Below are positions 1 to 3,595 of a stretch of DNA of 3,595 bases, piece by piece. Numbering within the stretch: the first letter of the stretch is position 1; every line of letters begins with the position of its first letter. Made by a program: the position numbers and the translations under genes. This stretch comes from a virus (lineage: Duplodnaviria; Heunggongvirae; Uroviricota; Caudoviricetes), in the IMG/VR virus record IMGVR_UViG_2623620501_000012, positions 1-3,595 of that record. One strand, written 5' to 3'. Under the pieces are notes generated by a model. The model did not search any database. It saw only the letters and a program-made list of their open reading frames with translations, and was not told where the DNA came from.

Positions 1-390
1 ATGCCATTTGCTCGTTATTTCTGCATTTTCATAAATGTTGGTTTGGGAGAAGCGGCTAAAAGGAATGTAGGGACAGGGGCGAATCAGATACCTGATATGG
101 GTAGCTTCACGCTTTCTGTTTCAGGTACTGGATATCAAAAATTACCATCAGGTTTTATTCTTCAGTGGGGCTCAATCGGCGCACCAGGCATTGCACAGGA
201 TGTAGTAACCCATTTCCCGATTGCATTTCCAAACAGATGTCTGCGTGTTTTGGTCTCACAAGACTACACACCAGATAGCGGGAATGTTGGTTATATTGCC
301 TGTGCAGGTTTTAGTCCCGACCCGGTTAAATTTATATCCAGAGCCAGTACTCCTGGCCTCGGCGCTTCATTTTTAGCGTTAGGCTGTTAA
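1..390 (+). CDS. Alternative tail-fibre C-terminal (receptor-binding) cassette, silent in this orientation; functional part probably begins at the crossover site near nt 40, not at the ATG at nt 1
   Basis: ORF track 1..390 (129 aa). Codons at nt 37-54 (VGLGEA) are identical in sequence and frame to the LGLGEG codons of the minus-strand tail-fibre gene at the other crossover site. The C-terminal region ([16 protein letters not shown]) looks like a phage fibre tip domain from recollection only. No RBS or promoter is visible before nt 1. It is followed 21 nt later by a tail-fibre assembly gene. Confidence 0.6.
26..51. other. Serine-invertase crossover site (hix/gix/pix-like), left boundary of invertible segment
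   Basis: Seen in sequence: nt 38-52 ttggtttgggagaag is the exact reverse complement of nt 1935-1949. The inner half-site and central TT dinucleotide are perfectly conserved; the outer half (ttttcataaatg) is degenerate, as is typical of hixL/hixR and gixL/gixR pairs. Confidence 0.7.
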
Positions 391-411
391 TTTAGCTATA
401 TGGAGTGAAAA

Positions 412-852
412 ATGAATTACATATATTCCGCGACTACAAACTCTTTCTATCCGCTGGAGATGAAAGAGGATTACACTCAAGCTGACTCATGGCCAGATGA
501 TGCTGTTGAAGTTGATGAGCAAGTGTATATTGAGTTTTCCGGATTACCGCCGAAAGGAAAAATCCGTATCGCTGGAGAAAATGGTTTTCCTGCATGGTCT
601 GAAATTCCACCACCAACACATGAGGAACAGATTGCTGCAGCCGAACTGGAAAAGCAGCAACTGATTAATCAGGCCAACGATTATATGAACAGTAAACAAT
701 GGCCTGGTAAAGCGGCTATTGGCCGGCTGAAAGGTGAGGAACTGGCGCAATATAATTTGTGGCTGGATTATCTGGACGCACTGGAACTGGTCGATACTTC
801 CGGTGCGCCAGATATTGAATGGCCTACGCCTCCGGCAGTTCAGGCCAGATGA
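412..852 (+). CDS. Tail-fibre assembly protein (Tfa/U-type chaperone), 146 aa, partner of the silent fibre cassette
   Basis: ORF track 412..852. GGAG sits 7 nt upstream of the ATG (ggagtgaaaaATG). The C-terminal motif APDIEWPTPP matches the conserved C-terminal signature of phage tail-fibre assembly proteins. Position immediately downstream of a fibre C-terminus. Confidence 0.8.
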   Translation: MNYIYSATTNSFYPLEMKEDYTQADSWPDDAVEVDEQVYIEFSGLPPKGKIRIAGENGFPAWSEIPPPTHEEQIAAAELEKQQLINQANDYMNSKQWPGKAAIGRLKGEELAQYNLWLDYLDALELVDTSGAPDIEWPTPPAVQAR

Positions 853-1417
853 CGTCCGGCGCTGTGCTGGTATCTGTTGCCGTCACCGCGTCAATGTAAT
901 CCAGCACAGCGTTAAGTCGGGTGTTTTCTGGCTGCGTCAGCTTCCGCCCAGCCTGTAATTTCATTTGAATCAGACTGATGGAAGCCATTGCAGCATCAAT
1001 CAGCGACTGGCGCTGTGCTTCTGCCGCTTCTACTGCGGCGCTATGCTGTGCCTCGGTATCCGTCACCCATTTCTCACCATCCCATTTATCGTATGGCGTT
1101 AACGGTGAAAGCGTGACATAACCGTCTTTGATGGCACCGATATAATCCACTGTAACAGCTGCGCCATTTTCAGTTGAGTAAACGGTCTCATTACGATGGT
1201 CTTCTTCATGGCTCCATCCCTTACCCGTAAATACTGCCACTTTTCCCGGAATGTTTTCGCCCGGGTCAATACCAGTGGAACAGGCGGGTATACTTACGCC
1301 AGTATTAATATATTCATCAGACCAGCCGGTATATTCATACGTTACTGCATTATAATAAAAACAACGCATATCGCCCGGCACTGTAGCCAGCCCATTTTCA
1401 TCAAAAACAGGTTTCAT
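824..1417 (-). CDS. Tail-fibre assembly protein (Tfa/U-type chaperone), 197 aa, partner of the currently expressed fibre
   Basis: ORF track 824..1417 minus. Start ATG overlaps the stop of the upstream fibre gene (TAATG at 1415-1419). SD-like GAGGG lies upstream (reverse complement of 1424-1431). C-terminal motif APDVIWPELPEA is typical of Tfa proteins. Converges on and overlaps the other tfa gene by 29 nt. Confidence 0.8.
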   Translation of the reverse strand: MKPVFDENGLATVPGDMRCFYYNAVTYEYTGWSDEYINTGVSIPACSTGIDPGENIPGKVAVFTGKGWSHEEDHRNETVYSTENGAAVTVDYIGAIKDGYVTLSPLTPYDKWDGEKWVTDTEAQHSAAVEAAEAQRQSLIDAAMASISLIQMKLQAGRKLTQPENTRLNAVLDYIDAVTATDTSTAPDVIWPELPEA

Positions 1418-2241
1418 TATTTAGCCCTCACCAGAAAGTTAAATGCAATATTTCGTGGACGGGTTTCTGTACCTACATGTCCACTAATTTCACCATAACG
1501 TTTAACACTACGAGAGCTAAGAGCTCGTAGTGAGGAAGGCACCTTAAGACCGGGTTCGTCCGTTTTAACTATTCCCCCGTCACCATATGTAGCCAGTATT
1601 CCTGGGTTTACTCCTTCCCGTGCACTTCCTGCAGCAAGCCCGTCCCCCGTCCACAATTCCATATTGTGTGCATGATCCATAATTGTGTGTGATTGCCCTG
1701 AAAGTAGGGTACGTCCGACATCAATCCCGCGCCCATCATCCCAGATACGAATGAAATCACCCCGTGCGTCAGGTAATGCTAGCGCCGGAAACGCTTTCGC
1801 CAGCACAGGGTAATCAGTGGCAGAGAATTTCGCGCCGTTGAACTTCAAAAACACCATACTGGACCAACTGTCGATTACAGTATTTGGCATTGCGGCGGAC
1901 GGCCAGAAGAACGGAACGCCAATAGCTGGAGCACCTTCTCCCAAACCAAGGTTTTCGAGAGCCTTTTGCACCGTGCCGTCCAATTTGATATCGCCAAACG
2001 GATTCTTGCGGCTTAACAGCAACGCGCGAAGCGCGGTAAGTAGCTGATCCGTTTTTTTGGGGTCAGGTTGAATATGTGCACCACCAAGAACATTAAGGAG
2101 TTCCTGCTGTAAATCACGGGTTGCCCCCTGCTGATTGTTTAAATAACCAGCAGTCACGAGGGTTCCTTCTATCCCCTGAGTGGGGTCACCATCATGAAAC
2201 AATTGATCCGGTGTATTTATCGGGGGCATCAGATTTTGCAT
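1417..2241 (-). CDS. Tail-fibre protein, 274 aa: constant N-terminal part (aa 1 to about 97) fused at the crossover site to a variable collar-type C-terminal domain
   Basis: ORF track 1417..2241 minus. Strong SD AAGGAGG (reverse complement of about 2249-2256) precedes the ATG at 2241-2239. TAATG overlap with the upstream gene. The C-terminal half contains a phage-tail-collar-like pattern (FNGAKFS...YPVLAKAF...LPDARGDF...[14 protein letters not shown]). The crossover site encodes [10 protein letters not shown] at aa 94-103. Confidence 0.8.
1936..1961. other. Serine-invertase crossover site (hix/gix/pix-like), right boundary, embedded in the tail-fibre coding sequence
   Basis: Seen in sequence: TTCTCCCAAACCAAGGTTTTCGAGAG, a 26-bp site with a palindromic AAACC-AA-GGTTT core. 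From memory it resembles hixL (TTCTTGAAAACCAAGGTTTTTGATAA) and gix sites. The inner half is the inverted repeat of 38-52. Confidence 0.75.
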
Positions 2242-2813
2242 TACTGCTCCTCCTTATATGTGAAATGGCAATAAGTAAAAGCGGGTTTAAGGTCTTTAAA
2301 TGTTTCTTCCAGTACAGGGGCACCAAAGGAAAGTAACGGCTCCCCGGCAGCAGATACTCCGGTTCTGAATCTGTAGGCTGGCGTTCTGCTTCCTGTGACA
2401 TTAACCTGCCAAATCCATCGGGCATCTGTTATATAGAGACGATCACCACATCGGTTTATCCCCGCTCTGAATGGATGAAGTTCAGTAATTGTTATGGTGT
2501 ACCCGAGGCTGGCTGCAAGTTGTTTAAAATAAGGGATAGATAACCCACCAGTTGCAGCCATCTTTATAAGAATATTTTCTCGGCGTTCCTGCTGTGTGGC
2601 ACCGTCGCGGGGTATTACTCCATACACTCGTTCCCAGTCAGACAGCGTCATGGATGCGTAAAATGGTGTGACAGATGCAAGCACTCGTGCAGCTGACGCT
2701 TTTACTTCATCCATAATGGCTGCTTCTGCGTTCAGTTCTGCTGAAATATATTTCCCGTTCGGGTCATAGCTGACCGGTGGTAACATGGCACGAAATAAAT
2801 CAACCGTATTCAT
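2241..2813 (-). CDS. Phage tail/baseplate protein, 190 aa (probably the Mu gp48 / P2 gpI / e14 YmfQ-like family), immediately upstream of the tail fibre
   Basis: ORF track 2241..2813 minus. SD-like GGGAGAG lies upstream (reverse complement of 2821-2827). Stop overlaps the fibre start (TAATG). Family assignment rests on synteny and recollection of e14/Mu gene order, not on a verified alignment. Confidence 0.6.
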
Positions 2814-2816
2814 GTA

Positions 2817-2902
2817 TTAACTCTCCCGGGGAAATGGCTGGATATCAATACTCCCCGGACGCAGCCACTCCCATGTGGATTCATTGACAACTGCTTTTAC
2901 AT
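2817..2902 (-). pseudogene. 3' remnant (about 28 codons) of the upstream tail/baseplate gene, truncated by the IS66-family insertion
   Basis: The minus-strand frame is open from the IS boundary down to a TAA stop (reverse complement of 2817-2819), translating ...VKAVVNESTWEWLRPGSIDIQPFPRES*. There is no in-frame start codon between the IS end and the stop, and the stop lies 3 nt before the next gene's ATG, a typical operon junction. Confidence 0.45.
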
Positions 2903-2925
2903 GTAAGCGTAAACTGACCGCCGTA
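2903..2925. repeat. Probable left terminal inverted repeat of the IS66-family element (exact length uncertain)
   Basis: GTAAGCGTAAACTGACCGCCGTA beginning at 2903. The right IR is outside the window, so its extent cannot be confirmed. Confidence 0.45.
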
Positions 2926-2987
2926 TGTAGCCATCAGACGAGAATTGGTAACTTAGACGCCCATCTGATATAGACGGACATCTAAGT

Positions 2988-3413
2988 ATGGAATTACAGG
3001 ACTGGCGAAAAGAACCTCGTAAAAACTATTCGAATGAATTCAAACTTCGTATGGTGGAACTGGCATCACAACCTGGAGCTTGTGTTGCACAGATTGCACG
3101 TGAAAATGGCGTCAATGATAATGTTATTTTCAAATGGCTCAGGCTCTGGCAGAACGAAGGGCGTGTTTCGCGGCGTCTTCCGGTAACGACCTCTTCTGAC
3201 ACTGGCGTTGAATTATTACCTGTAGAAATAACGCCGGATGAGCAGAAAGAACCTGTGGCGGCCATTGCGCCGTCTTTATCCACTTCCACTCAGACCAGAG
3301 TCAGTGCCAGTTCCTGCAAGGTGGAATTCCGTCACGGTAACATGACGCTGGAAAATCCATCGCCAGAGCTGCTCACAGTGTTGATCCGTGAACTGACCGG
3401 GAGGGGAAGATGA
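2988..3413 (+). CDS. tnpA: IS66-family TnpA (Orf1, helix-turn-helix accessory protein), 141 aa
   Basis: ORF track 2988..3413. The N-terminal region (YSNEFKLRMVELASQPGACVAQIARENGVNDNVIFKWLRLW) has the HTH-like pattern of IS66 Orf1. Its stop TGA overlaps the start of the next ORF (ATGA at 3410-3413). Confidence 0.85.
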   Translation: MELQDWRKEPRKNYSNEFKLRMVELASQPGACVAQIARENGVNDNVIFKWLRLWQNEGRVSRRLPVTTSSDTGVELLPVEITPDEQKEPVAAIAPSLSTSTQTRVSASSCKVEFRHGNMTLENPSPELLTVLIRELTGRGR

Positions 3414-3595
3414 TCTCACTCCCATCAGGTACCCGTATCTGGCTCGTTGCCGGCGTTACCGATATGCGTAAATCCTTCAACGGACTGGGAGAACAGGTAC
3501 AACATGTGCTGAATGATAATCCCTTCTCCGGTCACCTGTTTATCTTCCGTGGCCGACGGGGTGACACCGTCAAAATTCTTTGGGCTGATGCTGAT
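3410..3595 (+). CDS. tnpB: IS66-family TnpB (Orf2), N-terminal 62 codons; 3' end beyond the window
   Basis: Manual translation from the ATG at 3410: MISLPSGTRIWLVAGVTDMRKSFNGLGEQVQHVLNDNPFSGHLFIFRGRRGDTVKILWADAD, open to the window end. Absent from the ORF track because no stop falls within the window. Confidence 0.8.
   Translation, partial: MISLPSGTRIWLVAGVTDMRKSFNGLGEQVQHVLNDNPFSGHLFIFRGRRGDTVKILWADAD

Follow-up and report, generated by a model that had tools for sequence, protein, structure and literature searches.

Organization of the window

The window analyzed here (the whole stretch of 3,595 nt) is an exact reverse-complement match to L004 3..3597, at the end of contig LAUC01000044.1 (GCA_001637785.1). 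The source strain, E. coli RiKo 2351/09, belongs to phylogroup B1 and ST88 and was obtained from healthy cow faeces (PMC4966475). The 274-aa fibre protein of the window was encoded on one public contig, LAUC01000044.1.

The features of the window and of its left flank are shown in Table 1. The 14-mer TTCTCCCAAACCAA was present in exactly two copies, at 38-51 on the minus strand and at 1936-1949 on the plus strand, in inverted orientation, with a chance expectation of 0.06. Two inverted sites of about 26 bp with a matching central AA were found, both with perfect 14-nt half-sites. Compared with the sites of e14, the right site was identical and the left site differed at one of 26 positions. The constant N-terminus of the fibre lies outside the right site; two alternative fibre C-termini (one Gp53-like_C, the other collar-type), each with its own Caudo_TAP gene, converge inside the segment.

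Table 1. Coordinates of the features found in the window and in its left flank (negative positions are to the left of window base 1)
Feature	Position	Strand	Remarks
Truncated pin gene (stub)	ATG -29 (L004 3627); stop -124; prophage terminus -239	-	Flank of contig LAUC01000044.1
Flank outside the left site, within the 5' leader of the pin stub	1..25	-	Same sequence in the stub loci and at the intact pinE locus of e14
Left 26-bp crossover site (pix/gix-type)	26-51	-	TTCTCCCAAACC AA CATTTATGAAAA on the minus strand; central dinucleotide 38-39
Invertible segment	38..1949	.	Bounded by the central dinucleotides of both sites
Silent alternative tail-fibre C-terminal cassette (Gp53-like_C)	39..390	+	PF21882, E 2e-15
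Tail-fibre assembly (chaperone) gene, partner of the silent cassette	412..852	+	Caudo_TAP, E 8e-38
Tail-fibre assembly gene, partner of the expressed cassette	824..1417	-	Caudo_TAP, E 1e-27
Tail-fibre gene, expressed configuration	1417..2241	-	Constant N-terminal part 2241..1950, variable C-terminal part 1949..1417; crosses the right site
Right 26-bp crossover site, inside the fibre gene	1936-1961	+	TTCTCCCAAACC AA GGTTTTCGAGAG; central dinucleotide 1948-1949
Mu gp48/YmfQ-family baseplate gene	2241..2813	-	PF10076, E 2e-30
Baseplate J/gp47 gene, last 86 bp	2817..2902	-	Remainder removed by the IS
IS66-family element	2903..3595	+	Starts GTAAGCGTAAACTGACC; orfA 2988-3413, orfB from 3410; HTH_Tnp_1, TnpB_IS66

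The complete list of Pfam matches in the window comprised Gp53-like_C, two Caudo_TAP, a weak Collar, Mu Gp48, and orfA and orfB of IS66. An earlier reading of the sequence alone (the sequence-only reading) had noted that the recombinase is absent from this DNA and that only 25 nt lie outside the left site. Both points were correct: a resolvase/invertase domain was found in none of the window ORFs of at least 40 aa, and the left site begins at position 26. As judged from sequence, the window was shown to hold a tail-fibre inversion module of the Gin/Pin type, situated where a Mu-like transposable prophage in uidB has its right end.

The 129-aa ORF that starts at window base 1 (1-390) does not represent a gene of its own. 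Over roughly the first 13 codons, it runs across the pin leader and the crossover site; what actually codes is a promoterless fibre C-terminal cassette from about position 39. In L006, this same cassette is joined to a fibre N-terminus. The convergent assembly genes share 29 bp at their 3' ends (824-852), an overlap that was present in all the related loci examined.

Matches H4-H9 covered exactly positions 38-1954 of the window, with about 99.6% identity. This segment occurs at that identity in unrelated prophage backbones, such as e14 and another Mu-like phage in L006, and its homology begins and ends at the crossover sites, which suggests that cassettes may be exchanged whole between prophages.

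A truncated invertase gene in the left flank

Since the window exactly matches contig LAUC01000044.1, its missing left flank could be read directly. The invertase gene had been expected immediately outside the left half-site, and a pin-type start does lie there: the reading frame runs on the minus strand from an ATG that is 30 bp to the left of window base 1 and 67.5 bp from the centre of the left site. This pin stub has only 31 codons (93 nt), MFIGYVRASTNDQDTDLQRNALNCAGYELIF and then a stop. As the intact pinE reference, we used the e14 element of the genome that best matched window 1-2040. The alignment of the stub locus with this gene extends from the crossover site to nt 93 of the ORF with 92% identity, after which homology is lost. 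A promoter scan found no consensus sigma-70 promoter in the leader of the stub.

The sequence-only reading proposed translating the minus strand of an extended left flank in search of a Resolvase catalytic domain and a C-terminal HTH. The first was found as a weak Resolvase N-terminal match (Pfam) and the second was not, as the 31 codons gave no HTH match; e14 pinE, in comparison, showed the full Resolvase and HTH_7 domains. About 116 bp past the stub there is a Mu-like phage terminus, ...CGCGAAGTTACA, ending in ...GTTACA. Homology to the 3' end of uidB starts at the very next base (L004 3838), and uidC, ydgA, manA, fumA, fumC, and tus follow. With only 31 codons followed by the prophage terminus and uidB, the locus encodes no invertase in cis, and an adjacent intact serine invertase, with a Resolvase N-terminal and a C-terminal HTH domain, is lacking. 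The driver gene is missing from the locus itself, not merely beyond the window edge. The same reading had set against a recombinase-driven switch an unrelated upstream flank and a genome free of serine recombinases. The flank, a phage terminus and then uidB and uidC, is essentially of that kind; for the genome, our reading covers one contig, LAUC01000044.1, of an assembly that has 251 others.

The prophage lies inside the glucuronide transporter gene uidB (L004 3838-4043), of which the last 68 codons or so are left beside uidC. Thus, uidB is disrupted in this bovine commensal strain. Further along the flank, ydgA (DUF945; L004 5392-6901) was called as two overlapping 261-aa ORFs, which represent either a frameshift pseudogene or a draft-sequence error.

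A Mu-like lineage ends immediately past the stub

The stub loci of the source strain, E2348/69, and GF75 were identical up to GTTACA and then diverged into unrelated chromosomal DNA. A BLAST search with a junction-spanning query against 5,426 complete E. coli genomes revealed the stub-plus-terminus junction in about 20 of 20,395 records, where it lies beside various genes, among them eutC, yeiP, pta, melA, and mhpT. A further ~1,400 records matched only the part of the query that is common to intact genes (the site, the leader, and the start of the gene).

A complete prophage of the lineage, of about 35 kb, was found in strain 20KM0223N. Its early genes encode a repressor, a Ner-like protein, a Mu transposase, a MuB-like ATPase, Mor, and lysis proteins; the late genes comprise those of a Mu-type head, the sheath, the tape measure, the N/P/gp45-48 baseplate, and the fibre, and are followed by the segment and the stub. 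This complete prophage contained neither a further recombinase nor com or mom, and GCCCAGAA motifs are repeated at its two ends in inverted orientation. The MuA-type transposase, the MuB-like ATPase, the Mu-type late genes, the TG...CA termini, and the many insertion sites were all scored on relatives with an identical right end, the source contig showing the right ~3.1 kb of the prophage before the IS. By these predicted features, the element is a Mu-like transposable phage lineage whose right end lies immediately past the truncated gin/pin gene.

The same 93-bp stub and Mu-like terminus were found in L096 (OkiPb01676; 1-2900) behind a different baseplate module, which encodes a DUF2612 protein and not YmfQ. 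The right-end module appears to be mosaic across phage backbones.

The stub retains the predicted recombinational enhancer

In the Hin system, the enhancer is a 65-bp element with two 15-bp Fis cores whose centres are separated by 47 bp; between them are the AT-rich grooves ATTTA and TAATG, and the element is about 100 bp from hixL (PMC3798978). We mapped the enhancer of the stub by this geometry (PMC3798978) together with an analysis of synonymous constraint in Pin-family genes. Two G-N13-C cores were found in the stub. The proximal one, GCATCAACAAATGAC, is at nt 22-36 of the ORF with its centre 95.5 bp from the site centre, and the distal one, GTGCAGGATATGAGC, is at nt 71-85 with its centre 144.5 bp away. 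The cores are 49 bp apart, with ATTTA...CAATG between them.

Synonymous codon variation was measured in 73 distinct genes from 80 Pin-family loci of species-representative genomes, a set that includes a Hin-like gene from subsp. diarizonae and lacks hin of S. Typhimurium itself. Strong suppression occurred only at codons 9-12 (TCA ACA AAT GAC; normalised entropy 0.08-0.26) and 25-27 (GCA GGA TGT; 0.22-0.54), which correspond to nt ~22-36 and ~71-85. Variation was nearly free between these islands (mostly 0.7-0.99) and past codon 31 (~0.8-0.9). These two islands of constraint coincide with the predicted Fis cores, and the surviving 93 nt include them both. Relative to the family consensus, the stub has two changed positions in the proximal core (GTG to GCA) and one in the distal core (TGT to TAT). 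The stub thus keeps both of the crossover-proximal Fis-core islands, and from this we infer that it may function as an enhancer. The location proposed in the sequence-only reading, within the 5' coding region of the invertase gene, agrees with the position of these enhancer-like cores.

Other, independent invertase stubs end at nt 105 (L006), at about nt 122 (L097), and at nt 267 (L005 and H146); none of these three endpoints falls before the distal Fis core (nt 71-85). The endpoints are suggestive, being compatible with selection for retention of the enhancer, and are statistically not decisive. These independent truncations are found beside tail-fibre segments (L006 4979-5092, L097 2501-2623, and L005 3983-4297). 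Two of them abut possible cargo or defence genes, which encode an 870-aa AAA ATPase and a DUF262 protein. In the proximal Fis core of L006, the C at +7 is replaced by G.

Inversion among prophages that carry the stub

Our comparisons revealed inversion at the level of the lineage in three clean pairs and in one assembly with both junctions. The prophages of GF75 and 20KM0223N are near-identical and occupy different chromosomal sites; a 1,874-bp segment is 100% identical between them but inverted, whereas the flanks are collinear at 99.96-100%. Between E2348/69 and tcmA_3, 1,921 bp with another cassette are inverted at 99.7% identity. The third pair, the IMG-derived contigs L098 and L100, has the same insertion site and is collinear over 3,253 bp at 99.97%, about 3 kb of chromosome included, with the segment inverted at 99.95% identity. 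The common insertion site together with the inverted segment indicates that this inversion occurred after integration. The clean inversions had the same boundaries as the segment of the window.

The first 60 nt of contig L098 recur exactly, as the reverse complement, at positions 1930-1989 of the same contig; they consist of the half-site and 47 nt of the flank on the stub side. This flank thus adjoins the segment at either end, as read from one short-read contig end. This is best explained by the presence of reads of both orientations in the sequenced culture, as far as the assembly can tell. The source contig, in comparison, has a single orientation and is unbroken through both crossover sites, so one orientation was dominant in the sequenced culture of RiKo 2351/09.

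Two candidates were set aside. E2348/69 was rejected as an example of an orientation switch of its own, as its four assemblies all have one arrangement. FDAARGOS_1059, a long-read-confirmed E. coli Mu-like inversion locus, has an intact recombinase and com/mom, and is uninformative on stubs (PMC9881135).

Which recombinase could invert the segment

Gin, Cin, Pin, and Hin complement each other in trans, and an enhancer in the 5' end of the invertase gene is classical. The sequence-only reading held that the presence of an intact invertase decides between an active switch and a fossil; this proved too simple, because prophages with the identical stub have inverted cleanly, and its suggestion that action in trans needs to be considered was upheld. 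For a lineage that lacks its own recombinase and has nevertheless flipped, a trans-acting Pin-family enzyme is the most economical explanation. We consider it likely that the locus is an orphan Gin/Pin-type switch in a Mu-like prophage, with its invertase reduced to a stub, and that the lineage has been flipped by a borrowed enzyme of the Pin family. In the proposed mechanism, the Pin-family invertase of a co-resident element, for example PinE of e14, would catalyze inversion in trans at the two sites that were kept, with the enhancer in the stub occupied by Fis. A pinE match with at least 80% coverage was detected by blastn in 2,201 of the 5,426 complete E. coli genomes.

A stronger proposal is that the Mu-like lineage discarded its invertase and com/mom, that it keeps the sites and the 93-nt stub under selection, the sole role of the stub being that of a Fis-dependent enhancer, and that it has outsourced host-range switching to the Pin-family invertases of co-resident prophages such as e14. 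We offer it tentatively, as a conjecture that falls somewhat short of an even chance. If the stub is kept for its enhancer, it would clearly exemplify a protein-coding remnant that is maintained because its DNA acts in cis, and also the dependence of one mobile element on the recombinase of another.

The alternative that survives best is a frozen fossil, in which the invertase was deleted, the segment is locked one way in this genome, and the sites and stub are decaying leftovers. We hold this to be a serious but less probable reading. It agrees with the mere stub, the further breakage of the prophage by an IS66-family element, the continuity of the source contig over both sites, the uniform orientation of the four E2348/69 assemblies, and the fact that 59% of complete E. 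coli genomes are missing a near-full-length pinE homologue. On the other hand, both half-sites are perfect and both Fis-core islands are kept, and the three inversion pairs share the identical stub junction, one of them at a common insertion site; the two junction types in the L098 assembly also speak against it. The fossil reading can hold for RiKo 2351/09 and be compatible with a lineage that is flippable as a whole. On the main reading of a borrowed enzyme, too, the switch of this strain, with the IS66-family insertion in gp47 and one dominant orientation, is probably a decaying remnant, whose flipping would depend on whether the strain carries a compatible invertase. The contig ends within the IS66-family element; L004 696-1663 matches L010 1294-2261 at 99.9%.

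The opposite orientations in relatives could in principle have arisen by rare homologous recombination of the RecA type over the 15-20-bp inverted repeat, or by homologous replacement of the entire cassette with that of a co-resident element of the e14 type flipped by its own Pin. Cassette exchange does happen, as the segment common to unrelated backbones and bounded at the sites indicates, and the pin leader and fibre N-terminus on either side are conserved enough for homologous recombination. However, an inverted repeat of ~15-25 bp is a poor substrate for RecA, and three independent clean events, one of them between near-identical lysogens at the same site, together with mixed junctions, fit frequent site-specific inversion better. 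Moreover, cassette import needs a co-resident Pin-bearing element, whose Pin could act in trans anyway. We therefore regard this origin of the inversions as improbable.

The last alternative, an intact invertase just past the window edge that, like those of Mu, P1, and e14, works the switch in cis, might have been expected from the closest match to window 1-2040 (99.4%), an e14 whose intact 555-bp pinE starts at a distance of 30 bp from base 1, and from the ~1,400 E. coli records that match the site, leader, and gene start, with pinE or a recombinase gene annotated under the match in all of those listed, but it is refuted by the source contig, which has a stop after codon 31, loses pinE homology at nt 93, and enters uidB 116 bp further on, and we give it practically no credence.

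Returning to inversion in trans by a borrowed Pin-family enzyme, the lineage would offer a natural dissection of a textbook system, with the sites and the enhancer kept, the recombinase lost, and the lineage still moving and flipping.

Comparison with known inversion systems

The locus resembles the G segment of Mu with Gin in the order of gp47, gp48, S (constant and variable parts), U, and the inverted U' and S', and in the position of the invertase. In Mu, 67 bp separate the ATG of gin from the boundary of the G segment, which equals the spacing here; the 26-bp inverted crossover sites and a host prophage with MuA/MuB-like genes and TG...CA termini are also shared. Mu, however, has an intact gin of 582 bp followed by com, mom, and the right end, whereas here 93 nt remain and the terminus comes after about 116 bp. 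The sites here are of the pix type (TTCTCCCAAACCAA...), in contrast to gix of Mu (TTATCCAAAACCTC...). SfMu was rejected as a member of the same lineage, since it has gin (PMC4406740).

Similarity to the P segment of e14 with PinE, as in E. coli K-12-type strains, lies in the crossover sites, with the single mismatch in the left one, and in the leader and first 93 nt (~92% identical), and the e14 element of strain PCP06173 has the same segment at 99.4%. Despite this similarity, the locus was rejected as e14 itself: the flank consists of uidB-uidC-ydgA-manA and a Mu-like terminus, with neither pinE nor mcrA. Unlike this Mu-like prophage in uidB, e14 is a defective lambdoid element integrated in icd, with an intact pinE and then mcrA.

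As in the Hin/hix system of Salmonella, two Fis cores, predicted in the present locus, lie ~47-49 bp apart within the 5' part of a coding region, at a distance of about 100 bp from the closest crossover site and with an AT-rich ATTTA...(T/C)AATG centre. The differences are that hin is inside its own invertible segment and controls a promoter, whereas alternative protein C-termini are switched here, and that here the gene bearing the putative enhancer has lost its coding function. By mechanism, the locus is of the Gin/Pin type; among the features that define this family, it lacks one, an intact invertase beside the segment.

The general observation of invertible regions with no recombinase close by has been made before (PMC9881135). 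The present locus is like them in that no functional recombinase gene lies beside the recombination sites, and action in trans is thereby implied. Those regions rely on dedicated global invertases and for the most part flip promoters; the present one, in contrast, looks like a classical phage Gin/Pin module after a secondary loss, with a stub that coincides with the predicted enhancer. We found no published case of a transposable-phage lineage without gin, com, and mom that keeps its sites and a stub coextensive with the enhancer and still flips.

In the RefSeq annotation of related loci, tail-fibre genes were labelled "integrase" and pin stubs "hypothetical protein" (L002 5442-6203; L011 1975-2613; L012 2002-2223 and 3663-4124), and such labels mislead recombinase screens. 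Because annotation pipelines mislabel the stubs and sometimes the fibre genes, a local recombinase call is insufficient to judge whether a prophage switch is active.
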